This document shows, one piece after another, positions 27,264 through 63,152 of a DNA stretch of 64,000 bases. The position numbers and the translations under genes were made by a program. Each line of letters starts with the position of its first letter. Position 1 is the stretch's first letter. The stretch comes from Candidatus Elulimicrobium sp. (GTDB lineage: Bacteria; Patescibacteriota; Minisyncoccia; Phycocordibacterales; UBA918): NCBI GenBank assembly GCA_022730015.1, contig DZBU01000001.1, positions 1,307-65,306 of the forward strand, written 5' to 3'. Under the pieces are notes generated by a model that saw only the letters and a list, made by a program, of their open reading frames with translations, searched no databases and was not told the DNA's origin.

Positions 27264-28310
27264 ATGAAATGGAACCTTACCTTTTTATCGCTGCTTTTTT
27301 TTGGGTTTGTAATTACGACACTTCCGCAGACAGTGACTGCTGCTTCACTCTATATTGATCCAGCGACCAGTGTCGTCAATCGTGGCGACTCGATTACCCT
27401 GGCAGTTCGCCTCGATACTGACGAGGAAAATGGTGAATGTGTAAACACTGTTGACGGAACCATAAAATATTCAGAAAACATTGAAGCAGTAGATACTTCA
27501 ATTGGTGATTCTATATTTCGTTTGTGGATAGAAGCGCCCACTATTAATCCTGCCGATCGTACGATTACTTTTGCTGGGGGGATACCAAATGGTTACTGTG
27601 GTCGAGTCGCTGGAGATCCACGTTTGACCAATGTGCTATTTGAGATTGTTTTGCAGTCACCAGGCTTTTCAGTGGGAAGCGGAGGAACAACGGCTACGAT
27701 CGATTTTGCTCCAGAAAGCTCAGCGCTTTTAAATGATGGGTTTGGTACTAAAGCTGAGCTCGTAACGTATCCTGCGAAAATTGAGCTTGATCCGCGACCT
27801 GGTACATCGCTACAAAATCCGTGGCGTGAAGAAGTGTTGACTGACAGTGTTCCACCAGAAGAATTTGTTATAAGCCTTCAGTTAAAAGGTGAAGTAAATG
27901 CTGATAAGCACTACATCACCTTTAGTACAAATGATAAACAAACTGGTATAGATCATTATGAAGTAATAGAAGAACCGCTGACACAGTTTGGCTCATTTCA
28001 GTGGGGGAGGGCGGATGCACCGTGGGTGATTGTAAATGAACCAGAAAATATAAGGTATGTTCTTAATGACCAGTCACTGAATAGTATCATTCGGGTTAAA
28101 GCGATCGACAAGGCTGGCAATGAGTATGTCGCAACGTTAATTCCAGATGATTCACTCCGAACAGTTTCAGGTGATCAGTTGCTCATCATCGTTGCTGGAG
28201 TTGGTGTTGTCATTTTGTTTGCTGTGATTGGATTAGTGGTCTGGTCACGAATACGAAATCGCCGCAAGACAATCGACGTTGCGTCTACAAAAAATGATGA
28301 GCAAGCATAA
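27264..28310 (+). CDS. Cohesin-domain surface protein (signal peptide, cohesin-like module, Ig-like region, C-terminal TM, short basic tail).
   Basis: Signal MKWNLTFLSLLFFGFVITTLPQTVTA. The cohesin-like 'ITLAVRLDTDE...VDGTIKYSENIEAVDTSIGDSIF...ITFAGGIPNGY...TNVLFEIVLQSPG' resembles the Pfam cohesin consensus as I recall it ('ikYDpsvLevvsv..G'). TM LIIVAGVGVVILFAVIGLVVW. Confidence 0.75.
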   Translation: MKWNLTFLSLLFFGFVITTLPQTVTAASLYIDPATSVVNRGDSITLAVRLDTDEENGECVNTVDGTIKYSENIEAVDTSIGDSIFRLWIEAPTINPADRTITFAGGIPNGYCGRVAGDPRLTNVLFEIVLQSPGFSVGSGGTTATIDFAPESSALLNDGFGTKAELVTYPAKIELDPRPGTSLQNPWREEVLTDSVPPEEFVISLQLKGEVNADKHYITFSTNDKQTGIDHYEVIEEPLTQFGSFQWGRADAPWVIVNEPENIRYVLNDQSLNSIIRVKAIDKAGNEYVATLIPDDSLRTVSGDQLLIIVAGVGVVILFAVIGLVVWSRIRNRRKTIDVASTKNDEQA

Positions 28311-46140: not shown

Positions 46141-46180
46141 GATCAAGTATTACGATACACCGGCCCTGAAAGGCCGGTGT
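46141..46180 (+). terminator. Perfect 17-bp stem with a 6-nt loop (attacgatacaccggcc-ctgaaa-ggccggtgtatcgtaat) and no T-tract. It is a terminator or attenuator-like hairpin that overlaps the tracked 5' extension of tgt.
   Basis: Read directly as a reverse-complement match. Confidence 0.45.
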
Positions 46181-46206
46181 ATCGTAATGGAGTCGAAAAG
46201 TTGTCT

Positions 46207-47409
46207 ATGAACACATCACCAATATCCTTCACTATAGAAAAACGTATACCAGGTACGCTCGGTCGGGCTGGTGTCATTCATACTCCACACGGCGATATTG
46301 AAACACCAGCTTTTGTGGCTGTCGGAACAAAAGGTACGGTAAAAAGCATTAAGCCGGAGGACATGCGAGATTACGTAGGTAATCAAGTTGCTCTCGCTAA
46401 CACCTATCATCTATTTTTGCAGCCAGGAGCGGATGTCATAAAAGAGGCGGGAGGGCTACATGCTTTTGCTAATTGGCAGCTACCTACTATGACGGACAGT
46501 GGAGGGTTTCAAGTGTTTTCACTCGGTGCAGCATTTGGAAAAGGAGTGACTAAATTTGCGAAGGGAGAAGCCGCTGAGACAACTGAAAAACAAAGTCTTA
46601 ATGTGTACTCCAAAGAATTGGCAGCGGAACACGGGAAATTGTGTGTAATTGACGAAGAAGGGGTGACCTTCACATCACATCTTGATGGCTCAATGCACCG
46701 CTTTACTGCAGAACGTTCGATTGAGATTCAACATCAGATCGGGGCTGATATCATCATTGCTTTTGATGAATGCACCAGTCCAACTGCAAGCAAGGAGTAC
46801 CAACGTGAAGCGATGGATCGGACGCATCGTTGGGCAAAGCGCAGTATTCTGGCACATAAACAAGATTATGCTTCTCTCAAGAAGCAAGGTCTGTACGGTG
46901 TAGTGCAAGGAGGTAGACATCTTGATTTGCGTGAGGAGAGTGCACGAGCGCTTTCAGCGATGGATTTTGATGGGTTCGGGATTGGAGGCAGCTTCACTAA
47001 AGAAGATCTGGGAGACGCCCTGCGCGTCGTTAATGAAATTCTTCCTGAAGATAAGCCTCGGCATTTGCTTGGTATTGGAGAACCGGAAGATATTACAGAG
47101 GGGGTGAAGCTTGGTTGTGACACCTTTGACTGTGTTGCGCCAACGCGAATCGCGCGAACCGGCACGATCTATGAGCGGACAAATCAGGGTCATCAGCGTA
47201 CAAATCTCCTCAATAGTCGATATCAGCGAGATTTTAGTAAACCAGACGAGTCATGCGATTGCTACGTTTGTAAAAATTATACGAAAGCCTATCTGGCACA
47301 CCTGTTTAGGAGTCAGGAAATGCTTGGGGCACACCTAGCGTCTCTACATAACCTTTACTACATTGTAAATTTTACCAAGCGCCTCCGGGAAGAGATCTTA
47401 AGCAGATAG
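46207..47409 (+). CDS. tgt: Queuine tRNA-ribosyltransferase.
   Basis: 'LGIGEPEDITEGVKLGCDTFDCVAPTRIARTG' and the Zn-site 'CDCYVCKNYTKAYLAHLF...H'. ATG 46207 (MNTSPISF) is preferred over the tracked start, which runs through the hairpin. Confidence 0.88.
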   Translation: MNTSPISFTIEKRIPGTLGRAGVIHTPHGDIETPAFVAVGTKGTVKSIKPEDMRDYVGNQVALANTYHLFLQPGADVIKEAGGLHAFANWQLPTMTDSGGFQVFSLGAAFGKGVTKFAKGEAAETTEKQSLNVYSKELAAEHGKLCVIDEEGVTFTSHLDGSMHRFTAERSIEIQHQIGADIIIAFDECTSPTASKEYQREAMDRTHRWAKRSILAHKQDYASLKKQGLYGVVQGGRHLDLREESARALSAMDFDGFGIGGSFTKEDLGDALRVVNEILPEDKPRHLLGIGEPEDITEGVKLGCDTFDCVAPTRIARTGTIYERTNQGHQRTNLLNSRYQRDFSKPDESCDCYVCKNYTKAYLAHLFRSQEMLGAHLASLHNLYYIVNFTKRLREEILSR

Positions 47410-47475
47410 AGGCAAAACTTGATTTCTTACAAAACTATGGCATTGTGTACGTAGTTAACTTTCAAGGAGTCCATC

Positions 47476-48123
47476 ATGGACATCGTTCTTAATGACCTCA
47501 GACGGGTTATCGATAAACATCGATACCGACATCAACTAGAAAGGCGAGTTTCAAGGATCTTTGGCGAAGGTTCTGATAAGTATTGTGTGATCATGTTAAC
47601 CATTGATTTGGTGGCAGAAACACACAACAACGGTCTTCGGAACAACGGGGACCTTCTAAAATCACATGAGTTTGCGATGTTTACTATTGCACTTGTCTAT
47701 TGTGGAATAAGAGACCTATCAATACTTTTGGCCATACTTTTACACGACATGATCGAGGATTATCCAGAGATCTGGTCACCTTGGCTCATTGCCGAGCGTT
47801 TTGGTCAGGAAGTGCTCAGGATTGACCTTGCCGTCACAAAGCCCGATAAAAGCACCTTCACCACTGAAGCGGAGTACGAAGAAGTAATTTTTGATAGTGT
47901 TCTATCCGGTGGGTGGAAAGCGGTTGTCGTCAAGTGTATTGATCGTCTTCACAACATGCTGACTCTCTATGGCGGCAAAGATAAGATGGTTAATAAGGTG
48001 TTGCAAACCATTAAGTTCGTTCTTCCGATGTCGGCGAATATCCAATTCCTAACCTTCGAACTCATGTCAGCAACGACAGAGCAAATGAGTCGTCTAGAAA
48101 TGGAACAAGACCGATTCCTGTAG
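47476..48123 (+). CDS. HD-domain hydrolase of the RelA/SpoT (ppGpp hydrolase) type, stand-alone.
   Basis: 'LLHDMIEDYPE' (HD motif) and 'KCIDRLHNMLTL' (compare the SpoT/RelA hydrolase 'K.ADRLHNMRTL'). Confidence 0.6.
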   Translation: MDIVLNDLRRVIDKHRYRHQLERRVSRIFGEGSDKYCVIMLTIDLVAETHNNGLRNNGDLLKSHEFAMFTIALVYCGIRDLSILLAILLHDMIEDYPEIWSPWLIAERFGQEVLRIDLAVTKPDKSTFTTEAEYEEVIFDSVLSGGWKAVVVKCIDRLHNMLTLYGGKDKMVNKVLQTIKFVLPMSANIQFLTFELMSATTEQMSRLEMEQDRFL

Positions 48124-48153
48124 CCAAGACACATCGTGTCTTGGCTTTTTTTA
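48122..48153 (+). terminator. Rho-independent terminator: agccaagacac-atc-gtgtcttggct followed by ttttttatt.
   Basis: Read directly. The 11-bp perfect stem starts at the stop codon of the HD gene. Confidence 0.65.
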
Positions 48154-48180
48154 TTTACTATCGCGGGGTATAGTAGCAAC

Positions 48181-50202
48181 GTGAAATTCAATATCTCAAC
48201 TGAAAAAACTCCGGCGGGAGATCAACCGCAAGCCATCGCGTCTCTGCTCGATGGTATTGCTGCTGGACATAAGCATCAGACGCTTTTAGGTGTGACTGGA
48301 TCTGGTAAGACTTTTACTGCGGCCAACGTCATTCAGGCTGTGCAGAAACCGACCCTAGTGATCGCGCACAATAAAACATTGGCCGCACAATTAGCGCAGG
48401 AATACCGTGATTTCTTTCCTGAAAACGCGGTGCACTATTTCGTTTCGTATTATGACTATTATCAACCAGAGGCCTACATGCCGACGAGTGATACTTATAT
48501 AGAAAAAGAAGCGCAGATCAACGAAGAGATCGATCGCCTTCGGCACGCGTCCACACAGGCATTACTTACCAGAAAAGACGTTATTATTGTAGCTTCTGTT
48601 TCCTGCATCTATGGACTTGGTTCACCGGCTGAATACGAACGAAAACATCTTAAGATCGAGCGGGGATTCATGACGACACGTACCGATATGCTGCGAACAC
48701 TGGTTGATCTCTATTTTGAGCGAACTAACGCTGATCTTTCACCAGGCCAATTCCGGGCAGTTGGTAATACGGTTGAGATCATGCCAACAAACGAACGGGT
48801 CATCTGTCGTCTTGGCTTTAACGCAACGGGAGTTGCTTCAATAACCAAGATCGATGCTGTGACCCGTGCAATCATCGATGAACCTGATCGATTTTTCCTT
48901 TTTCCAGCAAAACACTTCGTCACTCCAGAAGATGAGCGAAAAGTTGCCATTGCTGACATCAAGCTTGAACTTGATGAACAGCTTAAGAAATTTAAAAAAG
49001 AAGGAAAGATCCTAGAAGCGGAACGCCTCAGACGTCGCACCGAACACGACCTCGCACTGATCAGAGAGATCGGATACTGTAATGGTATTGAAAATTACTC
49101 ACGTCATTTTGACCGCCGCAAACCTGGAGAAGCGCCATATACGCTACTTTCGTATTTTCCACACACAGAAAATGGCGACCCAGATTTTCTAACAATTATT
49201 GATGAATCACACGTTACTATCCCGCAGCTCAACGGTATGTATGCTGGTGATCGTTCTCGAAAAAATACTCTCGTTGAATTTGGCTTTCGACTTCCGAGTG
49301 CTGTCGATAACCGACCACTACAGTTTCCTGAGTTTGAAGAGCGAGTGGGGCAGGTGATCTATACCACAGCAACGCCTGGTAAGTACGAATATGTAAAACT
49401 GCAAGAACTTGACAGTAAACCAGTTGAACAAATTATTCGACCGACGGGACTAATCGACCCCGAGATTGATGTTCGTGGTGTTATCGAGAAGGGTATATAT
49501 CCTGGTCAGGTTAAAGATTTCATTGAAGAATCAGTTGCGGTGATCAAAAGAAGTGCTCGCGTGCTTGTTACAACACTTACTAAGCAGATGGCTGAAGACC
49601 TAGCTGAATTTCTTACTGAAAAAAATGTGAAAGCCAAGTACATTCATAGTGACGTTGGTACTATGGAACGAATTGAGATCCTTACTGCTTTCAGAAAAGG
49701 CGATTTTGATTGTTTGGTGGGCGTTAACCTTTTACGAGAAGGACTTGATCTTCCCGAGGTAGAATTGGTGGCGATAATGGATGCGGATAAAGAAGGATTT
49801 CTCCGCAGTGAGACTGCTCTCATCCAAACTATTGGACGCGCAGCTCGCAACGTGAACGGTCGTGTCATTTTGTATGCTGATGAATCCACTAAAGCACTTG
49901 AATATGCGATAGGGGAAACCAACCGCCGCCGGGCTATTCAGCTAGTGTACAACAAAACACATAACATTACTCCAAAGACAATTATAAAAGAAATTCGTTC
50001 AATCGCAGATCAGATGCGAACAGAACACCAAGAGACAGTTGACACGCTTCTTAAAATTGACCGTGAGTTATATAAGAAAAACCCTAAAAAGGTTATCAAA
50101 GAAAAGCGCAGACAGATGGAGGAAGCTGTAGCTGCTCTAGACTTTGAAACAGCAGCTATCGTTCGAGATGAAATTCTTTACCTCGAAAAATCAAATCAGT
50201 AG
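48181..50202 (+). CDS. uvrB: Excinuclease ABC subunit B.
   Basis: 'KTPAGDQPQAI..L..GI..G...Q.LLGVTGSGKTFT', helicase motifs, 'YVSYYDYYQPEAY' and the C-terminal UVR motif 'AAALDFETAAIVRDEI'. GTG 48181 is the preferred start. The tracked 48136 start runs through the terminator. Confidence 0.9.
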   Translation: MKFNISTEKTPAGDQPQAIASLLDGIAAGHKHQTLLGVTGSGKTFTAANVIQAVQKPTLVIAHNKTLAAQLAQEYRDFFPENAVHYFVSYYDYYQPEAYMPTSDTYIEKEAQINEEIDRLRHASTQALLTRKDVIIVASVSCIYGLGSPAEYERKHLKIERGFMTTRTDMLRTLVDLYFERTNADLSPGQFRAVGNTVEIMPTNERVICRLGFNATGVASITKIDAVTRAIIDEPDRFFLFPAKHFVTPEDERKVAIADIKLELDEQLKKFKKEGKILEAERLRRRTEHDLALIREIGYCNGIENYSRHFDRRKPGEAPYTLLSYFPHTENGDPDFLTIIDESHVTIPQLNGMYAGDRSRKNTLVEFGFRLPSAVDNRPLQFPEFEERVGQVIYTTATPGKYEYVKLQELDSKPVEQIIRPTGLIDPEIDVRGVIEKGIYPGQVKDFIEESVAVIKRSARVLVTTLTKQMAEDLAEFLTEKNVKAKYIHSDVGTMERIEILTAFRKGDFDCLVGVNLLREGLDLPEVELVAIMDADKEGFLRSETALIQTIGRAARNVNGRVILYADESTKALEYAIGETNRRRAIQLVYNKTHNITPKTIIKEIRSIADQMRTEHQETVDTLLKIDRELYKKNPKKVIKEKRRQMEEAVAALDFETAAIVRDEILYLEKSNQ

Positions 50203-50255
50203 TTCCTGTGGGTTAGTGACTGAACTCTATTCGGCTAAAATGATACTATACAAGC

Positions 50256-51068
50256 ATGTCAATACTCACTAATAAAAACGTCCTCATAATAACTGGTGAA
50301 GGAAATTCTTTGCTTGATGAATTGAGTGAGTCACTCGAAGCTCATGGGGCAAAGGTGACAAAAATTTTATGCTCGAAACTTTCTTCCGCTCTGCTTGAAG
50401 AACAACAGCCTGATGTAATGCTTTGTAACTGCATGCGTGCGTCAGATGATGAGTTCTCAACAACCTTCGATGTATTACGTGAGTTCGCTACGCGTGATCC
50501 AATACCAGTTTTCACCCTTATCCAAGACACACCCGAGACGATCCAGAACGCTTTATCGCTCGGTGTTACTGACTACATCACCCCACAGGAAGATGTTCGT
50601 TCAATCCTCGCTAAGATCAAGGCTGTTTTTGGTGAGGGGGACATGTTCTCGGGTAATGCTGCTATAGACATTACTCCCAATGAAGCTCATGTTACCACTT
50701 CAGGCATCCGTGTCTTTGTCGTAGAAGATGATCCGTTGCTTAGGAATCTTCTCTCTATGAAGCTTGATAGATCTCGTTTTCCTTATGAATTTAGTAATGA
50801 TGGCAGTGACGCTGTTCCCTTGATGTATCAGTTTAAACCTGATGTCATCATATTGGACCTTATGCTACCGGGGCGAAGTGGATTTGAAGTGCTTGCGGAA
50901 ATTAAAGCAGATGAAAAATTGAAAGACATTCCAGTCATTGTATTTTCTAATCGTGATGGTCGAGAAGACAGACAAAAAGCGAGTGAGCTTGGTGCTAGAG
51001 GTTTTTACGTAAAGGCGATGACAGATCTTTCAGAGCTGATAGAAACTATAGAATCGCTGGTTGCGTGA
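50256..51068 (+). CDS. Response-regulator receiver protein with no output domain: a degenerate N-terminal pseudo-receiver plus a canonical C-terminal REC domain.
   Basis: The second domain 'VFVVEDDPLLRNLL...PDVIILDLMLPGRSGFEVL...IPVIVFSNR...GARGFYVKA' has the conserved D, D and K. The first domain has 'DVMLCNCM' where the phospho-acceptor Asp is expected. Confidence 0.7.
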   Translation: MSILTNKNVLIITGEGNSLLDELSESLEAHGAKVTKILCSKLSSALLEEQQPDVMLCNCMRASDDEFSTTFDVLREFATRDPIPVFTLIQDTPETIQNALSLGVTDYITPQEDVRSILAKIKAVFGEGDMFSGNAAIDITPNEAHVTTSGIRVFVVEDDPLLRNLLSMKLDRSRFPYEFSNDGSDAVPLMYQFKPDVIILDLMLPGRSGFEVLAEIKADEKLKDIPVIVFSNRDGREDRQKASELGARGFYVKAMTDLSELIETIESLVA

Positions 51069-51105
51069 TTTATCGACAGTCGACGTCGGTTCTGTCGTCT
51101 AGGTC

Positions 51106-53472
51106 GTGTATACTTTTAATAATATGACTATCGCTAAGAATCCGCGACAAAATACACGAAGTGTAAAATCTAGCACGACCTCTGCTGCAAAAAAAACGGG
51201 CGGTATTGTAGCAAAGTCAAAGTCACGTTCTGCCATTGATACACGCGTGCGTACTAAAAAGACAATTGCGTCACCTCGCAAAAAAAATCCAACTTCAGCG
51301 AAACGGACACATATTGAGAAGGATAAGCAGAATACTAAACTGCCACCGGTGCACCTCCCAACAAACATGAGCAAACGGGCAGTAGAGAAAAGTGCTGTGC
51401 TGATGCAAGAGTTTGAACACTATTTTAGCGATGCTATGTATCGTATCGCGTATGTTGCTGGTCTTTGTTTCATTTTAGTTGGTGCCACATATGCCTCGAT
51501 TGGTTTGATTGAAAATCCGATTCAACAAAAGGCGACCTTGACTGAAGCTGTCGATTTAAGCAGTGAAGGATTGGTTGCTGAACCGGTAAATACGATTGTA
51601 GAACAAATACCACCTTCCGAGTTCGAGTATCTCACAGACGTTCCTAAAAACATCACTGAGGCGACAGAAGTTTATTTCGAAGTTTCGCATGCCGATGAGA
51701 TAATACCCAAGCTTGTAGTAGTGGGTAAGATTGGTTTTATAGATTTACCAGCTGAAAAAATTTCAGACTTAAAGTATAGAGTCATTATTCCGGTCAAATC
51801 ACTTGCAACAAACTATTATGAACTGCGCGTTTATGTTAAACCAGCTGACGGATCCGATCAGTACGTTGAGCGCACGAACCAATTTTTCGTTGGAAGTACT
51901 GATGTTGAAAAGTGGTTTAATGAGCAACTTCTTAAAGAAGCTGTCCTTGACGAGGAAGGCAATATAGCTGAAGGCACATCGAACAACACAGGAAATGTAA
52001 CAGATGCTGCAGATACTGATGGACAAGGTGATACACCTATCAATGGAACAGGTCAGACAGAGGTGTCAAAATTTGAGATAAAATCTCGAGCTTCTGTTTT
52101 GGTGGGTATTGCAAATGTCGACGTAGCAGTGTCTGAAGATGCAACCGATATTACTTTGTACGCGAGACGCATTGACGAACAAAACTCCTCTCTAGTTGAT
52201 ATAGCAGAAAAACATTTTGAGAATAGTTGGATATTTACGTTCGATTCCACTAAACTTCTAAATGGTGAATATGAATTTTTTGCGCAGACAAAGATTGGCG
52301 TTGGCACGCGACTTTCAAATTCACTAAAGCTTTCTGTCAGTAACGTTGTTACTAATAAAAGTGGTGATGATTTCCAAATCGAACTACCTAACAAACTGGA
52401 AGAACCTGAAGCTTCCGACAGCAGTACTGAGCCATACACTCCTACGGTTACTTTTGATGAAAGAGTGTCAGACGAGACAAAAGCGCTCATTGCTGACAAT
52501 CGGGAAGATTTCAACGAACTATTAACTAATTATGCTGCTGCTAAGCAGGCAGGGGATGAGTCACTGATCAGAGTCGCAAAAGAAGCGCTTGACGCTCTAC
52601 AGGAGACAATCCTTCTTGATGTTCATCGCGAGGATCGCGTGCGTGATATTTCAGATACGATTAGTGACGAGCTTGCTAATCGCGTTCTTGATCTACAAAA
52701 CAGAATTGATACGTTTGATGAGTTGCGTAAGCAGCGTTCGAACGGAGCTATTACAGTCGACACAGATGGTGATGGTGTTTCGAATATGGATGAATCAAAA
52801 CTTTACAAAACAGACCCTGGTTTAGCTGATACTGATGACGATGGTGTAGCAGATGGTATTGAGATCATGCGAGGTTACAATCCAAGCGATGCAACGCCAG
52901 AGGCTGTCATCCGTTTTGAATCGCCCAAAGAAACATTTGGTCTAACTCGTCATGATGCGCTTGAAATCGCTGAGGTGATCCCACTAATTACTAATGGTAT
53001 TACTGATGAGCAGACATCTGTTGCGGCTGAGATAAGGGGTAAAGGTTTGCCAAATAGTTTTGTAACTTTATATGTATTCAGTACTCCGACAGTGGTCACG
53101 GTCAAAACTGATGCAGATGGTTACTTTGTATACACTTTTGATAAAGAGCTTGAGGATGGGCAACACGATGTTTATGTAACTCTAACAGATAATGTTGGCG
53201 CGATCATTGCACAAAGTAATCCGTTTACTTTTGTGAAGGAAGCACAGGCATTTACTCCAGTTTCTGCTGCCGACGAAGCAGCACTCTCTCCTCAACCGAT
53301 CACTGAGGATCCGGGGAAGGGGTATGCTTTAGCTATTGGTGTCGGCATCCTCGGGTTTGGGCTGATCTTGTTAATGCTTGGCATTAGCCTTCGAAAAGAA
53401 GAGAATGGTGAAGTTATTATCATAGAAAAACCGCTGCCTCCTGAAAAAAACGTGACTTCTGAAAGTCTATGA
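51106..53472 (+). CDS. Bitopic/secreted large protein: basic N-terminal tail, TM, ~650-aa extracytoplasmic region with thrombospondin-type-3-like Ca-binding repeats, C-terminal TM.
   Basis: TM IAYVAGLCFILVGATYASIGLI. 'DTDGDGVSNMDESKLYKTDPGLADTDDDGVADGIE'. C-terminal TM GYALAIGVGILGFGLILLMLGI. Confidence 0.65.
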   Translation: MYTFNNMTIAKNPRQNTRSVKSSTTSAAKKTGGIVAKSKSRSAIDTRVRTKKTIASPRKKNPTSAKRTHIEKDKQNTKLPPVHLPTNMSKRAVEKSAVLMQEFEHYFSDAMYRIAYVAGLCFILVGATYASIGLIENPIQQKATLTEAVDLSSEGLVAEPVNTIVEQIPPSEFEYLTDVPKNITEATEVYFEVSHADEIIPKLVVVGKIGFIDLPAEKISDLKYRVIIPVKSLATNYYELRVYVKPADGSDQYVERTNQFFVGSTDVEKWFNEQLLKEAVLDEEGNIAEGTSNNTGNVTDAADTDGQGDTPINGTGQTEVSKFEIKSRASVLVGIANVDVAVSEDATDITLYARRIDEQNSSLVDIAEKHFENSWIFTFDSTKLLNGEYEFFAQTKIGVGTRLSNSLKLSVSNVVTNKSGDDFQIELPNKLEEPEASDSSTEPYTPTVTFDERVSDETKALIADNREDFNELLTNYAAAKQAGDESLIRVAKEALDALQETILLDVHREDRVRDISDTISDELANRVLDLQNRIDTFDELRKQRSNGAITVDTDGDGVSNMDESKLYKTDPGLADTDDDGVADGIEIMRGYNPSDATPEAVIRFESPKETFGLTRHDALEIAEVIPLITNGITDEQTSVAAEIRGKGLPNSFVTLYVFSTPTVVTVKTDADGYFVYTFDKELEDGQHDVYVTLTDNVGAIIAQSNPFTFVKEAQAFTPVSAADEAALSPQPITEDPGKGYALAIGVGILGFGLILLMLGISLRKEENGEVIIIEKPLPPEKNVTSESL

Positions 53473-54827
53473 TTTCTCAGCTCTTACAAATTTTAGAAAG
53501 AGGCTTCAAGGTCATGCGTCTAAGTTCCCGCATGTTCCTGGTAGGGATTTTGGTATTCGTTTTTCCTCTTTTATACATTTGGGCCGCCCAAACCTTCTAT
53601 AGCACTGCTTATGATAATGTTCAAACTATACTCAAGTACGAAGTTGGAATCGTTAGTGATAGCCTGCAAGCCGTATTGGTCAGTACTAACGCAGACAAGG
53701 ATGTCTTGAATGCAGCGATAAAAGTCATTGTGAGTGAGAATGTTGAAACTGACCCTGTGGATATCACAGCCATTCGTATCTATACTGAGACTGCCAACGG
53801 AATGGTAGTTTTGGCTGCCGATCGTGACGAGTTTGTCGGGGAATTCGATCCATCAGCTGAAGACTTAAAAGAGATGGGTTTTACTAATACTAGACCATTT
53901 CATCAACGTGAGTCAGTGTCAAATGGTGATCGTATCTGGAGTGCATACAAACGCGTGGAAGTAGACAATCATTTCTATTACATCACCTCGGAATTTAATT
54001 TAGCTCAACTAGATAAGACTATGGCTTTTCGAAAACAGCAATCATATCTAGGTCTTACAGGGATATTTCTTTTTTTGATTGCACTAGCCTACTGGCTAAA
54101 TCGCCAGGTGCACTGGGAAAAACGTTATGAAAGACAAGTTGAGCTTTTAAATGAACGAGATCTCTTCTCGAACATGATTGCACACGAGTTTCGGTCACCG
54201 CTGACGGCAATCAAAGGATATGCGAGTTTTTTAGAGGAGTCTCAAACATTGCTCCCAGACGAGCGTCGTTTTGTTGGTAACATTAGACAATCGGCGGAAC
54301 ATCTAGTTGCCCTCGTCAGTGATTTTCTGGAGGTCGCTCGCCTGCAATCGGGTAAACTAAAAATTGAAAGACAGGACATCGATGTGAGAACGGTTGTTTT
54401 CACTGTGCTCGAAAACTTACGTGGTATGGCAACTGAAAAGGGTCTTAAACTCGAAGTTGATCCAATGTCAGATCCAATCATGTTTAAAACTGACCCAGCT
54501 CGACTGCAACAAGTTTTGACAAATTTGGTGACAAATTCTATCAAATACACCCAAACAGGCTCGATACGACTACGTTGTTCAGTCGATTATAAAGCAGTTA
54601 GTGTTCGTGTCATGGACACTGGCATGGGCATTAGTGCCGAGGATCAGCAAAAGCTTTTTGCTCCCTTTACACGAGTTGGTGGTGTTGATGCAAGCTCGAT
54701 CACTGGTACTGGCCTCGGCATGTACATCACTAAGCAGCTGGTAACCTTGCTTGGTGGTACGATCGGGGTTGAATCAATAAAGGGAGTTGGTAGTCATGTC
54801 GTTGTAACTCTTTCAGAATCAAAATAA
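53469..54827 (+). CDS. Sensor histidine kinase with two TMs flanking a ~170-aa extracytoplasmic sensor domain. Probable start ATG 53514.
   Basis: H-box 'HEFRSPLTAIKGYASFL'. N-box 'LTNLVTNSIKYT'. G-boxes 'MDTGMGIS' and 'GTGLGMYITKQLVTLLGGTIGVES'. Confidence 0.8.
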   Translation: MISQLLQILERGFKVMRLSSRMFLVGILVFVFPLLYIWAAQTFYSTAYDNVQTILKYEVGIVSDSLQAVLVSTNADKDVLNAAIKVIVSENVETDPVDITAIRIYTETANGMVVLAADRDEFVGEFDPSAEDLKEMGFTNTRPFHQRESVSNGDRIWSAYKRVEVDNHFYYITSEFNLAQLDKTMAFRKQQSYLGLTGIFLFLIALAYWLNRQVHWEKRYERQVELLNERDLFSNMIAHEFRSPLTAIKGYASFLEESQTLLPDERRFVGNIRQSAEHLVALVSDFLEVARLQSGKLKIERQDIDVRTVVFTVLENLRGMATEKGLKLEVDPMSDPIMFKTDPARLQQVLTNLVTNSIKYTQTGSIRLRCSVDYKAVSVRVMDTGMGISAEDQQKLFAPFTRVGGVDASSITGTGLGMYITKQLVTLLGGTIGVESIKGVGSHVVVTLSESK

Positions 54828-54856
54828 TTGCTCATATTGTAGTTATTTGTATAATG

Positions 54857-54866
54857 ACGACATACA
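54857..54866 (+). promoter_or_regulatory. Extended -10 element tTGTATAAT upstream of uvrA.
   Basis: Read directly. It lies ~73 nt upstream of ATG 54939. Confidence 0.4.
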
Positions 54867-54938
54867 AACCTTCACCGTCATGTGGAGGTGTTGTGGTATG
54901 GAGACAACTGGTTTACTAGGAGATATTTAGAAAAACAC

Positions 54939-57587
54939 ATGGCTGAAGCACGTAAAAAGCAAGTGAAGACAAAATGGGAAGAGCCAGCTGGTGCTGAAGT
55001 CCCGAAGATTATTGTTCGTGGTGCACGAACACATAATTTAAAAAATATCGACGTGGAAATGCCGCGAGGAAAGATGATCGCAATCACCGGACCCTCTGGC
55101 TCTGGAAAATCCTCGCTAGCATTTGATACTATTTTTGCTGAGGGGCAGCGACGTTATGTTGAATCACTTTCTCCGTACGCCCGACAATTTCTTAATAAGA
55201 TGCAAAAACCAGACGTTGACGAGATTTCTGGTTTGTCACCAGCGATCTCAATCGACCAGAAATCTGCATCAAGAAACCCGCGGTCAACCGTTGCTACTAT
55301 CACCGAAATCTACGACTATCTTCGTATTGTCTATGCCCGCATTGGCCAGCCATACTGCCTTGATGTGGATACGCCCATTCAGCGACTTTCTCAAGATGAA
55401 ATATTAAATTTAGTACTGAAATCAATTGAGGACAAGGAAGTGAAGGCGGCTACCAAAAAACAGTCAGAGCAGGTATTGGGAATAGAAGTTTCCAAGGGAA
55501 GAGTAGCGATCTTTTCACCACTGGTGGTTGGCCGAAAAGGAGAATACTATCAATTACTTTACGACCTGCTCGGGAAGGGTTACGAAACAGTCAAGATCGA
55601 TGGTCAGATTAAGCAGCTTCGAGAACGAATTGAGCTCTCAAAGACCAAGCGTCATGACATCGATGTTTTGATTGATGAGATTTACGTAAGTGAATTTACA
55701 TTTGATCCAAAAGGTTCCCGGGAGCGTCTTTCTGAAGCTGTCGAGCTGGCGCTCCATGAGTCTAATGGTTTGGTAAAAATAGAAAGCCCAGACGGTGCAG
55801 AGCGTATTTTGTCGGCAAAATTTATCTGCCCAGTTGATGGCTCCTCGTTCCCCGAGGTCGAACCACGCCTCTTTTCCTTTAACTCACCGTACGGTGCCTG
55901 TCAGGAGTGTAATGGTCTTGGGGTCGTTGGTATTTTTCAAAATGATGAGTGTCCTGTATGTAAAGGAGCTCGCCTACGCCGCGAAGCGCTTCGCGTGTAT
56001 CTTGGCGGTGATGGTACAAAAAATCTCGGAACAAACATCGTTGATTTTACTAGAATGACAGTAGCCGAAGCGGCTGACTTTGTCGAAAATTTAAAGCTGA
56101 CTAAAAAACAGGAAGAGATTGCCTGGCCAGCACTGCGAGAAGTCATCGAGCGCCTCGATTTCATGAAGGATGTAGGTATTGAATACCTGACGCTAGACCG
56201 TCGTGCAAACACGCTTTCAGGGGGTGAAGCTCAGCGTATCCGCCTGGCTTCACAGCTCGGGTCTGGCTTGGTGGGTGCATTGTATGTGCTCGATGAACCA
56301 ACGATCGGTCTACATCAACGAGATAATGACAAGTTAATAAAAACACTACGAGAACTACGTGATCTCGGGAATACCATCATTGTCGTCGAGCATGATGAGG
56401 ACACTATTCATGCTTCAGATTACCTAATTGATATCGGACCAGGGGCTGGGGTGCACGGAGGAAATGTTATTGTTTCTGACTACTTACAGAAGCTGCTTTC
56501 AGATAAGAAAAATAAGTCTGGTTCGGTAACACTCGACTATCTGCGAGGTGACCGAAGGATTGAGATTCCCGAACGCCGAACCGGCGAAAAAGGGAAGATA
56601 CAGATTAAAGGTGGAAAGGCGTTCAATATAAAAAATATGAATGTCGATATCCCACTCGGTCGTTTAATATGTGTCACCGGCGTCTCAGGCTCTGGAAAAT
56701 CAACCTTCATGTATGAAATCGTCGACAGAAATCTTAAGGCGAGACTTGAAAAGCGGTATCGAACAGCTAAGACGTACAACTGCACCAGTTTTATAGGTAC
56801 TGAATATTTAGGTCGCTCCGTGCTGATTGATCAGTCTCCGATTGGTCGTACACCGCGTTCCAACCCAGCTACTTACACTGGGTCGTTTACCCACATTAGA
56901 GATCTCTTTGCGGCGACCAGTGAAGCTAAAGCACGTGGCTGGAAACCAGGACGCTTTAGCTTCAACGTAAAAGGCGGTCGCTGTGAAGCATGTCAGGGAA
57001 ACGGCGAAATCGCGGTAGAAATGCACTTCTTGCCGACAGTATATGTCACGTGCGATGTGTGTGATGGTAAGCGTTTTACCAAAGAGACTCTGGAGATCTA
57101 CTACAAAAAGAAAAATATCTATGAAGTGCTTCATATGACCATCGAGGAAGCGCATGATTTTTTCATCGACGTTCCTGCCATTGAAGAGCGCCTACGATCG
57201 TTGCTTGATGTTGGACTGGGATACCTCGAACTTGGTCAAAGTGCTACTACGCTCTCTGGCGGTGAAGCACAACGAGTAAAGATCGCTTCTGAGCTTTATC
57301 GTCCACACACGCAAAAAACTATTTACCTGCTTGATGAACCGACGATCGGACTGCACTATGAAGATGTTCGAAAATTAATCGAGATATTGCAGCAACTAGT
57401 TAACCAGGGAAATACTGTAATGGTCATTGAGCACAATCTCGATCTTGTTAAAAGCGCTGACTATCTCATTGATATCGGACCTGAAGGTGGAACGGGCGGA
57501 GGAGAGATAGTTGCTAAAGGAACTCCTGAACAAGTGGCTGAAAATCCAAAGTCCCATACCGGTCGCTATTTGAAACGCATCCTATAA
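54939..57587 (+). CDS. uvrA: Excinuclease ABC subunit A (tandem ABC ATPase with Zn-finger insertions). At ~882 aa it is slightly short.
   Basis: Two Walker A sites ([19 protein letters not shown]), two ABC signatures ([24 protein letters not shown]) and CxxC pairs (CQECNG...[14 protein letters not shown]...CDVCDG). Start ATG 54939 (MAEARKKQ). Confidence 0.9.
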
Positions 57588-57592
57588 AGCCC

Positions 57593-58828
57593 ATGAAAAG
57601 AGTTGACCTAACTGTAAGAAACCTACCGGATGCACCAGGGGTGTACTTCTTTTTGGGAGCCAGAAAAAAAATCTTATACATTGGAAAAGCGACATCATTG
57701 CGCAATCGCGTTCGAAGCTATTTCTCAGAGGATATAAAAGAAAAACGTTCTGAGTTGATCGAGAAGATGGTGGCTGAGGCAGCTACGGTTGAGTGTACAG
57801 AGACAGACAGCGTGCTTGAAGCATTGATCCTCGAGACTAATCTGATTCGTACACATAAACCGCTCTATAATACCCGAAGCAAAGATGATAAGAGCTACAA
57901 TCATCTCGTTATCACAAACGAGGAGTGGCCTCGAGTCATGGTCGTTCGGGGTAAGGATCTCACAAACGATTTCATGAAGTATGAAGTCAAGTACCATTTC
58001 GGGCCGTTCCCTAGTGGGACACTCCTTCGTGATGCGCTTAAAATAGTTAGAAAATTATTTCGTTTTTATGATACAAAAGTGCCACTCAGTGAGGCAAAGA
58101 GTAAACTACATAAAGGCAAGATCGATTTCAATCGTCAGATTGGTCTTTACCCTGATCAAGTGTCAAAGAAAGAATACGCTCGTACAATCAAGCATTTGAA
58201 GCTCTTTTTTGAAGGAAAAAAAACACAGATCATAGCTGAGCTTGAAAGGGAGATGATGCGACATGCTAAGGCTGAACGTTTTGAAGAAGCACAACAAGCG
58301 AAAAGTCAGATCTTTGCTTTGCAGCATATCCAAGATATTGCCCTGATTAAAAACGAGTCACGGGTGTATCGTGATGAGAAACGAGTTCGGATTGAAGCCT
58401 ACGATATTGCTCACCTGCAAGGCACCGATATGGTGGGGGTGATGACGGTGATAGAAAGTGGCGAACCTGTAAAGGGTGAATATAGAAAATTTAAGATTGA
58501 ATCACTGACCAATGCGAACGATCCTGCAGCATTGAAGGAAGTATTATCTCGTAGACTGACTCATGAGGAATGGCCACTGCCGCAAGTAATCGTTGTCGAT
58601 GGTGCTGTTATACAGAAAAACGTAGCTGAACGAGTGCTTAAAGAATACAGTTTAGTAATTCCTGTGGTTGCGGTCGTCAAAGACGACCGTCACAAACCAA
58701 TTCGACTGATTGGTTCGAAGGAACTTCTTGAAACACATCAACAATCAATACTTCTTGCTAATGCTGAATCACACCGCTTCGCCATCAGTTACCATCGTGA
58801 AAAGCGTCGCAAGCGAACACGAGCGTAA
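57593..58828 (+). CDS. uvrC: Short UvrC-type excinuclease subunit (GIY-YIG + UVR + RNase-H-like domains; no C-terminal (HhH)2).
   Basis: GIY-YIG 'GVYFF...ILYIGKATSLRNRVRSYF'. UVR-like 'EREMMRHAKAERFEEAQQAKSQIFALQHI'. C-terminus '...VVVDGAVIQ...ANAESHRFAISYHREKRRK'. It is 411 aa against the usual ~600. Confidence 0.75.
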   Translation: MKRVDLTVRNLPDAPGVYFFLGARKKILYIGKATSLRNRVRSYFSEDIKEKRSELIEKMVAEAATVECTETDSVLEALILETNLIRTHKPLYNTRSKDDKSYNHLVITNEEWPRVMVVRGKDLTNDFMKYEVKYHFGPFPSGTLLRDALKIVRKLFRFYDTKVPLSEAKSKLHKGKIDFNRQIGLYPDQVSKKEYARTIKHLKLFFEGKKTQIIAELEREMMRHAKAERFEEAQQAKSQIFALQHIQDIALIKNESRVYRDEKRVRIEAYDIAHLQGTDMVGVMTVIESGEPVKGEYRKFKIESLTNANDPAALKEVLSRRLTHEEWPLPQVIVVDGAVIQKNVAERVLKEYSLVIPVVAVVKDDRHKPIRLIGSKELLETHQQSILLANAESHRFAISYHREKRRKRTRA

Positions 58829-60900: not shown

Positions 60901-60973
60901 GGGCCCGTAGCTCACTTGGTAGAGCGCCTCATTTGCACTGAGGAGGCAGGGAGTTCGAATCTTCTCGGGTCCA
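60901..60973 (+). tRNA. tRNA-Ala (anticodon TGC).
   Basis: Manual cloverleaf. Acceptor GGGCCCG/CGGGTCC has the G3:U70 Ala identity pair. D-arm GCTC-ACTTGGTA-GAGC. Anticodon arm CCTCA-TTTGCAC-TGAGG. T-arm GGGAG-TTCGAAT-CTTCT has two G:U pairs. Discriminator A. CCA is not encoded. Confidence 0.8.
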
Positions 60974-60976
60974 CAA

Positions 60977-61087: not shown

Positions 61088-61110
61088 TTGCGAGATTCGT
61101 GAAAACGTGT
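61088..61110 (+). promoter_or_regulatory. Promoter TTGCGA-17 nt-(TGt)CATAAT, ~14 nt upstream of the 61124 start codon (very short leader).
   Basis: Read directly. Confidence 0.45.
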
Positions 61111-61123
61111 CATAATTAAAACA

Positions 61124-61813
61124 ATGAATAACTTCAAATCAAGTGGTCCGGGAGGATTACGAGGCCGTCGTGAATTTATCGGTGGGCGTCCAAAATCGGA
61201 TGGGGAGTACGGGCCAAAGAAGCAGTTTGATAAGAAGCCTTTTGGTGGAAATCGTGGTGGCTTCGGAGGAGGAAATCGTGGTGGAGATCAGGGTAGAGGT
61301 CGTGGCAATTTTGGAGGAGGAAATCGTGGTGGAGATCGTCGCGATGTAGAGATGCATAAAGCAATTTGTTCTACTTGCGGCAAGCCATGTGAGGTACCGT
61401 TTCGACCAGACGGATCAAAGCCTGTGCTCTGTAGTGAATGTTTTGGAAAAACAAAATCTGATGACCGAGGTGGTTTTGAGAATCGTGATCGTTTCTCGAG
61501 TCATCGGCCGCAGCGTGACAATGATCGAAAATTTGATGCTCCACAAAAAGATCGAACCCCGAGCCCGGAGATGAAGGCATTGCAACAGCAAGTTTCATCT
61601 TTAGAGAATAAGCTAGATGAAATTCTTTTAATTTTAAAGAACCCCTCTCCAGAGAAAGTTATAAAAGAAAAAGGGGCAACAACACCAGTTCAAGAAGTGG
61701 TTTCAGCCAAACCTGACACCAAGAAAAAAGTTGCAAAGAAAGTTGCTGTGAAGAAAACAGTAGCAAAGAAGGCTGTGAAGAAAGTTGCAAAAAAGGTGGT
61801 GAAAAAGAAATAG
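61124..61813 (+). CDS. Gly/Arg-rich (RGG-box) protein with a central C4 zinc ribbon and a Lys/Ala/Val-rich histone-H1-like C-terminal tail. Probably binds nucleic acid.
   Basis: 'GGNRGGFGGGNRGGDQGRGRGNFGGGNRGGDRR', 'CSTCGKPCEVPFRPDGSKPVLCSEC', and a tail of 'KKVAKKVAVKKTVAKKAVKKVAKKVVKKK'. Confidence 0.7.
   Translation: MNNFKSSGPGGLRGRREFIGGRPKSDGEYGPKKQFDKKPFGGNRGGFGGGNRGGDQGRGRGNFGGGNRGGDRRDVEMHKAICSTCGKPCEVPFRPDGSKPVLCSECFGKTKSDDRGGFENRDRFSSHRPQRDNDRKFDAPQKDRTPSPEMKALQQQVSSLENKLDEILLILKNPSPEKVIKEKGATTPVQEVVSAKPDTKKKVAKKVAVKKTVAKKAVKKVAKKVVKKK
61265..61337 (+). repeat. Two perfect 25-nt direct repeats (ggaggaggaaatcgtggtggagatc) 48 nt apart, encoding the GGGNRGGD units.
   Basis: Read directly: 61265-61289 and 61313-61337. 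Confidence 0.7.
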
Positions 61814-61845
61814 GCTCTATATTGCAAACCATAAATCGCTCAAAA

Positions 61846-61872
61846 AGACGGCCTTCTGGTCGTCTTTTTGTT
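61846..61872 (+). terminator. Rho-independent terminator agacggcc-ttct-ggtcgtct followed by ttttgttg.
   Basis: Read directly. One G:U pair. Confidence 0.6.
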
Positions 61873-61956
61873 GCGTCTTCTTCCTGACAGGGGTGGTCGT
61901 GAATGATATACTAAGGAAATTACAATTTATATTCTGATTTCTAGATACGAAACTAT

Positions 61957-62727
61957 ATGCAGAAACCTTTAAAAATACTTCTACTTCTTCTCGCCGGCAT
62001 TCTCTTGGTACTGGTCGTACTTTGGATAAGCAATAAAAATAATGAGACCTCAACAGAAACTGTTGACACCTCCGAAATTGTTCCCGTTGAAGACCCACTT
62101 GATACTGTTTTAACTTTTTACAACGATTGGCTGCAAGCAGAGCAGAGTACAACAACTGATCCAATTCTAGCTGGTCTCCTCGATAGTCAAGTCTTATCAC
62201 CTGAAGTACGTGCAAATCTGGAAAAAGCACTAGCAGAGCAGTCCGAAGGATCCCTGAATCCTGTACTATGTCAGCCTACTGTACCTGCCAGAATTGGTGC
62301 TAAAGTGCTGTTTACTTTGGATACGCAGGCACAGATTATGGTGCTTGCTCGTGGGGGAGAAGAAAAATCAGCATACCAAGCAGTGGTAACCCTCAAAGCA
62401 GTAGACGGCATGTGGCGTATTGCTGAAATCGCTTGTGCAGAGGGAGATGTGGCACCTGAACGAGAGCACGATTTTGAACGAGAGGGCTTCCTTCTCAAGA
62501 GCGTACCACCGCCACTTGATCCACAGTACTGGCACCTAGTATACGAGGAAAACGGACAGCTTGGTCACACTGTTCCACTACTTTTTAGCAACGAAAGCAT
62601 CTGTGTCACTGCAAATGGGAGTGAATCAAATTGTGATGTCTCACAATTTACTGAAGCAGCAAGGGTACTCCTTCAAGCTGATATGATTGAGGTTGGTGCA
62701 CAAGTAAAACGAATTCAGTTCAAGTAA
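61957..62727 (+). CDS. N-terminally membrane-anchored protein of unknown function.
   Basis: TM ILLLLLAGILLVLVVLWI. It has four Cys. An extended -10 tgatatact lies upstream at ~61897. Confidence 0.55.
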   Translation: MQKPLKILLLLLAGILLVLVVLWISNKNNETSTETVDTSEIVPVEDPLDTVLTFYNDWLQAEQSTTTDPILAGLLDSQVLSPEVRANLEKALAEQSEGSLNPVLCQPTVPARIGAKVLFTLDTQAQIMVLARGGEEKSAYQAVVTLKAVDGMWRIAEIACAEGDVAPEREHDFEREGFLLKSVPPPLDPQYWHLVYEENGQLGHTVPLLFSNESICVTANGSESNCDVSQFTEAARVLLQADMIEVGAQVKRIQFK

Positions 62728-63074: not shown

Positions 63075-63147
63075 GGGCCCTTAGCTCATTCGGTAGAGCG
63101 CTTCCATGGCATGGAAGAGGCGAGCGGTTCGAATCCGCTAGGGTCCA
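63075..63147 (+). tRNA. tRNA-Ala (anticodon GGC).
   Basis: Manual cloverleaf. Acceptor GGGCCCT/AGGGTCC with G3:U70. D-arm GCTC-ATTCGGTA-GAGC. Anticodon arm CTTCC-ATGGCAT-GGAAG. T-arm AGCGG-TTCGAAT-CCGCT. Discriminator A. An extended -10 tgctacaat lies at 63056-63064. Confidence 0.85.
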
Positions 63148-63152
63148 CAAAT

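Follow-up and report, generated by a model that had tools for sequence, protein, structure and literature searches.

A conserved Gly/Arg-rich CxxC-x17-CxxC zinc-finger protein in a Candidatus Elulimicrobium genome and its possible role as a multivalent nucleic-acid binder

What kind of protein combines a Gly/Arg-rich run, a four-cysteine motif and a Lys-rich tail within only 229 amino acids (aa), and what might it do in its host? The question is raised by the gene at 61124..61813 on the plus strand of a 64,000-nucleotide (nt) stretch of Candidatus Elulimicrobium sp. DNA (contig DZBU01000001.1 of GenBank assembly GCA_022730015.1), called the window here. Its predicted product is a largely disordered protein of 25 kDa with an isoelectric point (pI) of 10.2 and a net charge of +28. 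We found that 61124..61813 is a real, conserved, stand-alone gene. Judged by its profile matches and conserved residues, its product belongs to the CxxC-x17-CxxC family PF23477/TIGR04272, of which it displays the testable defining features. This family is already catalogued and the window protein adds a member to it, with no new mechanism shown. As to its function, we tentatively favour an abundant, oligomerising and multivalent nucleic-acid binder with RNA as the preferred target, a statement which, taken as a whole, we place just short of an even balance. The features of the gene and its product are the following.

61124..61813, plus strand: open reading frame (ORF) with an ATG start, 229 aa plus stop, encoding the CxxC-x17-CxxC domain protein (ORF list)
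61124..61240, plus strand: conserved N-terminal motif, aa 1-39, MNNFKxxGPGGLRxRxEFxGGRPKSDxxYGxKKxFDKKP (98-sequence alignment)
61241..61342, plus strand: Gly/Arg-rich (RGG/RG) disordered run, aa 40-73 (composition and predicted local distance difference test, pLDDT)
61244..61289 and 61292..61337, plus strand: two in-frame direct-repeat copies, 48 nt from start to start (repeat search)
61349..61456, plus strand: zinc-finger domain, aa 76-111, PF23477 zf_Tbcl_2 / TIGR04272 (Pfam and NCBIfam profiles)
61466..61564, plus strand: mixed-charge linker rich in Arg and Asp, aa 115-147, RDRFSxxRPxRxxxRKFDAPxKDR (alignment)
61565..61639, plus strand: conserved amphipathic helix, aa 148-172 (AlphaFold2 and alignment)
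61718..61810, plus strand: Lys/Val/Ala-rich tail, aa 199-229 (composition)

A first-pass annotation of the sequence had proposed the ORF and its modular layout. Every feature it named was recovered at its place, and the layout is conserved across the family. To these we add two features that it had not described, namely the N-terminal motif and the helix.

The family assignment is carried by the finger. Its cysteines are arranged as C82-x2-C85-x17-C103-x2-C106, with EVPFRPDGSKPVLC between the two pairs, and a motif of this type is unique in the window in any frame. The Pfam profile PF23477 zf_Tbcl_2 ('probable treble clef zinc finger') scores 56.4 bits (cutoff 27; E = 2.3e-15) over aa 76-111, which correspond to profile positions 2-37 of 37, and the NCBIfam profile TIGR04272 ('CxxC-x17-CxxC domain-containing protein') matches with 56.9 bits against a cutoff of 36 (E = 1.2e-15). 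We studied conservation in alignments of 23 and 98 homologues. Across aa 74-114 the mean identity to the window protein is 0.73. The four Cys as well as V91, P92, F93, P95, K99 and P100 are invariant in the 98 homologues, with the VPF.P...(K/R)P..C core intact, and R94 and F107 are conserved.

The fold was predicted with AlphaFold2, using the 98-sequence alignment for the full-length protein and 107 diverse sequences for a model of the finger only. The full-length model contains just two ordered elements, the finger and helix 148-172, and the remainder stays below about 60 pLDDT. In the finger, strands at 78-81 and 88-91 are followed by a helix at 104-114 with pLDDT values of 84-91 (85-94 when given for both models); the finger-only model has a pLDDT of 85 and the topology seen in the full-length model. 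In the models a hairpin knuckle carries the first CxxC and the N-terminal end of the helix carries the second, as in a treble clef, which is hence the predicted fold. The 'C4 zinc ribbon' of the first-pass annotation holds with regard to the C4 motif but not with regard to the ribbon: we rejected a zinc-ribbon fold as the second Cys pair is predicted at the helix N-terminus and not on a hairpin knuckle, and Pfam also describes the domain as a treble clef. Among solved structures (PDB) none is related by sequence to the protein, to the family profile or to the finger profile, and these searches returned only coiled-coil-like matches or trivial 'TGEKPxxCxxC' coincidences. Fold comparison gave no significant solved neighbour, the best non-significant ones being the protein-binding PHD and FYVE fingers, and PHROGs gave no significant match.

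Experimental data on the domain are available for Methanosarcina mazei, in which two small proteins with the same domain bind zinc by inductively coupled plasma mass spectrometry (PMC12704099). The small domain proteins of this organism are among the most confidently detected small proteins in its proteomes, and the authors raise a possible role in transcription based on the shared Cys spacing (PMC12704099). By analogy, the window protein would be expected to bind zinc through its four Cys. Proteins of the CxxC-x17-CxxC type, those of M. mazei included (PMC12704099), have the same finger as the window protein, and in many of the small members the finger is likewise preceded by a Gly-rich N-terminus and followed by basic residues. 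Compared to the minimal members, however, the window protein is 4-5 times longer and adds the N-terminal motif, the charged linker, the putative coiled-coil helix and the Lys-rich tail. Our literature searches found no full-text mention of TIGR04272, PF23477 or zf_Tbcl_2, and nothing relevant on RGG-plus-zinc proteins of the candidate phyla radiation (CPR) or on a treble clef combined with a DEAD-box protein.

The part N-terminal to the finger consists of the conserved motif and the Gly/Arg-rich run. In the 98-sequence alignment the motif has a mean identity of 0.71 to the window protein, with M1, G20, G21, R22 and P23 invariant. When species genomes were scanned, the loci matching the complete motif all bore the labels Paceibacteria, Parcubacteria or Kaiserbacteria; its start, M-x-N-F, is commoner than the full motif and was found more widely in the family. 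The run at aa 40-73 is 50% Gly, has a net charge of +5 and contains RGG at 44-46, 52-54 and 68-70 as well as RG at 58-61, which bears out the RGG-type N-terminus of the first-pass annotation. Its RGG units are spaced by 5 and then by 13 residues with RGRG between, and this spacing is borderline with respect to the definitions of di- and tri-RGG motifs. The AlphaFold2 pLDDT of the run is below 50 and its alignment occupancy is 0.67. The length of the run varies in the family, and because of these changes the part N-terminal to the finger spans 43 to 99 aa. To judge from the sequences, the changes in length would fit repeat slippage. The perfect 25-nt direct repeats that had been claimed for this region were found as well: GGAGGAGGAAATCGTGGTGGAGATC, a 25-mer, has two exact copies (61265-61289 and 61313-61337), with none expected from 100 shuffles. 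Both copies lie within 48-nt in-frame units that are identical at 38/48 positions and encode GGNRGGFGGGNRGGDQ and GRGRGNFGGGNRGGDR.

On the other side of the finger, the mixed-charge linker (aa 115-147) shows a mean identity of 0.42 and pLDDT values of 51-58. It leads into helix 148-172, for which AlphaFold2 reports a pLDDT of about 95 and which has a mean identity to the window protein of 0.51. The helix spans three heptads with M150, L153, V157, L160, L164, I167 and L171 at the a and d positions. In the 98-sequence alignment L153, L160, K163 and L168 are at least 90% conserved; in a 13-sequence alignment that includes DPANN-labelled homologues K163 is invariant, and the shared motif is QL..IN.KLDKI. 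The predicted helix and its heptads suggest a short coiled coil that would oligomerise the protein; profile matches of the window protein to GCN4-type coiled coils were weak and non-significant only. A second linker (aa 173-198) is unconserved, with a mean identity of 0.10. It is followed by the tail (aa 199-229), in which 16 of the 31 residues are Lys (52% Lys, 26% Val and 16% Ala) and which lacks acidic residues and Pro, in agreement with the KK-repeat tail that the first-pass annotation had seen. The DNA of the tail shows a 27-30-nt periodicity. Its mean identity to the window protein is 0.53, and in CPR homologues the tail is conserved as a composition. Read from these alignments, all modules are under selection: conservation is highest in the N-terminal motif, the finger and the helix, and the Gly/Arg run and the tail are kept as compositions.

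A search for homologues, as proposed with the first-pass annotation, was productive. With 90% clustering, the word-indexed search gave more than 1,090 homologues, whose named sources were Candidatus Kaiserbacteria, Parcubacteria or Pacebacteria. When 1.84 billion cluster representatives were searched exhaustively with a profile, we obtained 6,111 clusters (counted at 50% identity) with E ≤ 1e-3, 3,482 with E ≤ 1e-10 and 244 with E ≤ 1e-30. The best 150 of the 6,111 clusters are all 150-340 aa long and contain 1-5 finger stretches. In a scan of one genome per species, relatives were found in 383 species genomes. Taxon names are given here as they appear in record titles, some of which are clearly auto-assigned, and the DPANN labels stand without an independent check.

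The pI within the family is 9.8-10.5. The records that show the entire architecture, from the N-terminal motif to the Lys tail, all carry labels such as Paceibacteria, Parcubacteria or Kaiserbacteria. In other CPR groups (Collierbacteria/Microgenomates, Peregrinibacteria, Falkowbacteria, Doudnabacteria, Nomurabacteria, Yonathbacteria and Ryanbacteria) the proteins combine M-x-N-F and a Gly/Arg run with one or two fingers, the helix QL..IN.KLDKIL.LL and a K-rich tail. Records labelled Woesearchaeota, Pacearchaeota or Nanoarchaeota contain this helix together with the Gly/Arg run and the finger, and their tail is acidic or absent. The DPANN-labelled loci L049, L058, L063-L065, L073, L076, L078 and L083, for instance, keep the KLDKI helix and have an acidic tail such as ELELDYEEDSEEQSDDSDDEEEN or none. 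Minimal proteins of 36-76 aa are built from the finger, preceded by a Gly-rich N-terminus and followed by a short basic end, and occur under the labels of other archaea and of Omnitrophota, Chloroflexi, Acidobacteriota and Firmicutes (examples are P0121-P0240 and loci L057, L062, L068-L072 and L086). They are the only proteins returned by the 43-column finger profile, large fusions being outside its reach. As the minimal proteins have a Gly-rich N-terminus and the finger, and the DPANN-labelled tails are acidic or absent, the distribution indicates that the Gly/Arg run and the finger form the conserved core, that the helix was added in CPR and DPANN and that the Lys tail is a CPR-specific addition. 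The profile search also detected up to 4-5 finger stretches per protein, and in related CPR proteins the Gly/Arg-plus-finger unit is repeated 2-5 times, which points to multivalency by repetition of this unit. The term 'eukaryote-style', used by the first-pass annotation, describes a compositional resemblance only: the family is prokaryotic (CPR, other bacteria and archaea), and the window protein has no linker-histone globular domain, RRM or RanBP2 finger.

The finger also occurs in other small combinations. In Firmicutes it is sometimes fused to a PF13451 finger, and a tblastn search of plasmids and phages gave six weak matches. One of these, on the Pusillibacter faecalis plasmid NZ_AP023421.1 (L087, 2842-3120), is a 92-aa protein annotated as 'zinc-ribbon domain containing protein' that carries a PF13451-like finger (CKECGQEFVFTAGEQEFY...CKAC) together with a CxxC-x17-CxxC finger and is encoded immediately downstream of a sigma-70-family gene. 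This two-finger combination recurs in other small proteins.

The gene is flanked by two expression signals.

61088..61116, plus strand: promoter-like site, TTGCGA-17-CATAAT (consensus scan)
61841..61873, plus strand: intrinsic terminator, a 13-base-pair hairpin with arms at 61841-61853 and 61858-61870 (inverted repeat and RNA fold)

The −35 box TTGCGA (61088-61093) is separated by a 17-nt spacer from the −10 box CATAAT (61111-61116), which is preceded by TG at 61108-61109 and one further base. The site agrees with the consensus at 9/12 positions and has the extended TG. Since the −10 box stops 7 nt upstream of the ATG, the mRNA is probably leaderless, with the start site placed from the sequence. 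Of the 'near-consensus promoter with a very short leader' in the first-pass annotation, the promoter-like site thus stands; 9/12 plus TG is not strictly near-consensus, however, and the leader amounts to effectively none. The terminator that it had also noted was found too: the 3' arm of the hairpin runs into the T-run UUUUUGUUG and the fold has −25.4 kcal/mol (z = −8.1). Hairpins after the stop codon were present in four other homologous loci. Just upstream of the gene lies a tRNA-Ala(UGC) at 60901-60974, and because it has its own hairpin (−27.5 kcal/mol) we treat the zinc-finger gene as a separate, monocistronic unit with its own promoter and terminator, as had been claimed. These signals suggest that the unit is probably strongly expressed.

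The same layout is found elsewhere. Upstream of divergent homologues we observed a TTG-type −35 box and an extended −10 box (TGnTATAAT-like) 6-8 nt before the ATG, without a Shine-Dalgarno motif. A loose, automated scan for TANNNT flagged 32/57 bacterial loci, and by reading about 30 have the extended −10 layout. In DPANN-labelled loci TTTAAATA or TTTATAAA, a TATA-like box, is located about 22-24 nt before the ATG. Both the bacterial −10 pattern and the TATA-like pattern would predict leaderless mRNAs. Within the window a weak Shine-Dalgarno-like motif was found at only 5/36 ORF starts, and a −10-like hexamer 6 nt before the ATG also occurs at the genes at 27264, 42958 and 50256, which suggests that leaderless or Shine-Dalgarno-independent initiation is widespread in the host organism. 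With most window genes lacking a Shine-Dalgarno motif and several having a −10 box at 6 nt, we rejected the idea that the leaderless layout is specific to 61124..61813; it looks like a lineage-wide habit.

From the composition of the protein, nucleic-acid binding appears to be the most reasonable reading. In the mechanism we propose, helix 148-172 would make the protein a dimer or a higher oligomer, and each subunit would provide several weak, sequence-unspecific contacts via the Gly/Arg run, the finger with its aromatic and basic residues (F93, R94, K99, F107) and the Lys-rich tail. From an oligomer with several weak contacts per subunit multivalent binding would follow, and nucleic acid would be bridged, coated or chaperoned. 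The favoured target would be RNA, be it rRNA, mRNA or RNA in general. RNA is favoured over DNA because the Lys tail, the most DNA-compaction-like part of the protein, is outside the conserved core, being acidic or absent in DPANN-labelled homologues and missing from 40-60-aa minimal proteins, and because designs with RGG and a small finger are classically single-strand and RNA binders. RGG/RG runs and small zinc knuckles with exposed aromatics are typical of single-stranded nucleic-acid binders such as CNBP, retroviral NC and the RanBP2 fingers of FUS and ZRANB2. Eukaryotic CNBP and the FET proteins (FUS, EWS and TAF15, with a RanBP2 finger) contain both disordered Gly/Arg-rich runs and one or several small fingers of the C4 or knuckle type, and are multivalent and basic. 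The window family likewise combines Gly/Arg-rich runs with one or more fingers and is basic, but it has a different finger family and a prokaryotic distribution, and the resemblance is an analogy only, without a sign of common descent. In Pfam the window protein has no match to zf-CCHC, zf-RanBP or RRM at E ≤ 1, and we do not count it among the FET proteins. By analogy it may work like CNBP/FET-type chaperones or like H-NS/Hc1-type architectural proteins. By profiles and models we rejected membership in the linker histone/Hc1, FET/RanBP2-finger, DEAD-box helicase, DksA/TraR and zinc-ribbon classes.

Several observations weigh against this proposal. Treble-clef fingers often bind proteins instead of nucleic acids, and our literature search found no nucleic-acid-binding experiment for any member of the CxxC-x17-CxxC family. 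Fusions to helicase, RRM or other RNA-handling domains were not seen among the best 120 or 150 matches, lists which are biased to short proteins. The link to RNA helicase C-terminal domains raised by the first-pass annotation was likewise not borne out: in contrast to DEAD-box helicases the window protein has only 229 aa and no DEAD/Helicase_C core in Pfam, and the relatives seen in these short-biased lists are all 36-340 aa long. Clustering of the neighbours at 80 loci gave no protein family in more than 5 loci and hence no pointer to a pathway. High expression, finally, is argued from sequence signals, and a leaderless layout that is common in the genome would have no bearing on the zinc-finger gene in particular.

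The main rival to an RNA-favoured function is a nucleoid-associated protein, in which the Lys tail and the Gly/Arg run would neutralise the charge of DNA and the coiled coil would bridge duplexes, thereby compacting or organising the small CPR chromosome. Such a protein would be modelled on H-NS, which has an oligomerisation helix and a DNA-binding end, plus a Lys/Ala tail as in Chlamydia Hc1 or mycobacterial HupB. Hc1, the C-terminal tail of HupB, Pseudomonas AlgP and eukaryotic H1 are all DNA binders with Lys-rich tails, and the KK-plus-small-hydrophobic repeats and very high positive charge of the window tail are similar: the tail has +16 in 31 residues in a protein of net +28, and essentially all CPR homologues have a K-rich tail. 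The helix is of the oligomerisation type, and the stand-alone, strongly signalled gene layout is typical of abundant architectural proteins. However, the tail is outside the conserved core, as described above. With 31 aa it is short, Val-rich and free of Pro, unlike the C-terminal domain of H1, and it is not conserved outside CPR bacteria. In addition, linker histone, Hc1, HU and H-NS have no match in Pfam or NCBIfam at E ≤ 1. H-NS-type proteins consist of an oligomerisation coiled coil, a flexible linker and a nucleic-acid-binding end, and the proposed logic of a short coiled coil that would multimerise flexible basic modules is alike, but there is no sequence or fold relation and the folded module of the window protein is a zinc finger N-terminal to the helix. 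On balance we regard a nucleoid role as rather unlikely, though deserving of serious attention.

Clearly less probable is a protein-binding adaptor or transcription factor, whose finger would dock on RNA polymerase, the ribosome or another protein with the disordered basic regions as accessories, similar to the TFIIB ribbon or to DksA/TraR with their CxxC-x17-CxxC fingers. Protein binders are, as noted, the best (non-significant) fold neighbours, and the shared Cys spacing led the authors of the M. mazei study to raise a possible role in transcription (PMC12704099). Some of the small homologues bear the name 'DNA-directed RNA polymerase' in public records, but these labels come without visible supporting evidence. 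The homologue directly after a sigma-70-family gene in Firmicutes is a single case, with no recurrent neighbour over the 80 loci. The DksA/TraR, TFIIB and RNA polymerase subunit families are unmatched in Pfam at E ≤ 1; in spite of the same Cys spacing as DksA/TraR, there is no zf-dskA_traR match at that threshold and the single helix of the window protein is C-terminal to the finger. Its extreme basic charge and the repeated Gly/Arg-plus-finger units of the family suit the binding of polyanions better. One could also suspect an artefact, in the sense that a mis-assembled (collapsed) repeat produced the low-complexity segments or that the ORF is not a real gene, and there are indeed short direct repeats inside 61124..61813. 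These repeats are only 25-48 nt long, though, which would speak against a collapse. Moreover, a JGI metagenome contig contains the same 229-aa product with the same flanking DNA, as does a Logan assembly that was built independently, and a homologue from another assembly, 87% identical, has equal length and an equal two-unit Gly/Arg arrangement. Frame and architecture are preserved in thousands of homologues. We therefore rejected this explanation, which the first-pass annotation had named as a risk and which has practically nothing left to commend it; 61124..61813 is a correctly assembled, ordinary gene of a catalogued domain family. The probability that remains beyond the readings named here belongs to something else.

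The surroundings of the gene are conserved to a limited extent. A second tRNA gene, tRNA-Ala(GGC) at 63075-63148, lies downstream of it. A tRNA-Ala(UGC) upstream was found in the window and in L007, L009, L011 and L034, a tRNA-Ala(GGC) downstream in the window and in L003, L016, L020-L024 and L034, and one or both adjoin orthologues in about a dozen related genomes. We take this recurrent adjacency for retained synteny that has no functional meaning. Among the protein-coding neighbours, conservation is confined to close relatives: uvrA-uvrC-ugd-ddl is upstream of the zinc-finger gene in the window and L004, and a 256-aa protein of unknown function and a rhodanese are downstream in the window and L003. 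The 256-aa ORF (61957-62727, plus strand) has an N-terminal hydrophobic segment and no Pfam match. Its homologues adjoin the zinc-finger gene in L008-L010, L013 and L019, and the ORF at the same downstream position in L003 has 252 aa and again no Pfam match. The region 46177-58828 of the window contains tgt, uvrB, a response regulator, an Ig-domain protein, a histidine kinase, uvrA and uvrC, followed by ugd-like and ddl genes, and is ordinary housekeeping. Further away are two giant ORFs on the plus strand, 934-17424 (5,496 aa) and 33372-38894 (1,840 aa). The Pfam matches of the former are Ig-like (Ig_Rha78A_N) and DUF2341 only and the latter has none; the two may be large surface proteins.

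New in this analysis are the conservation map of the modules, the N-terminal motif, the putative coiled coil, the core shared by CPR and DPANN with oppositely charged tails, and the leaderless layout together with its lack of specificity. A large part of bacterial diversity belongs to the CPR bacteria (Patescibacteria), and for most of their conserved lineage-specific proteins a function has yet to be assigned. The family studied here comprises thousands of clusters, is conserved module by module, has strong expression signals and is cheap to test. In a wider and rather doubtful picture, which we would not put ahead of its alternatives, the combination of Gly/Arg run, treble clef and coiled coil would be a major, abundant chaperone or architectural protein of the ultra-small CPR and DPANN prokaryotes. 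It would organise RNA, in a ribosome-associated or condensate-forming manner, or the nucleoid, as a functional analogue of the eukaryotic RGG/zinc-knuckle proteins and with tails tuned in opposite directions (polycationic in CPR, polyanionic or absent in DPANN). The family may fill in for RNA chaperones or ribosomal components that are missing from reduced genomes. Should nucleic-acid binding prove absent, the conserved N-terminal motif and helix would point to another partner worth finding. If it is a general RNA or DNA chaperone, it would offer a first handle on the organisation of RNA or of the chromosome in minimal cells, and a clear prokaryotic case of the RGG-plus-zinc-finger design, whose discussion usually centres on eukaryotes.

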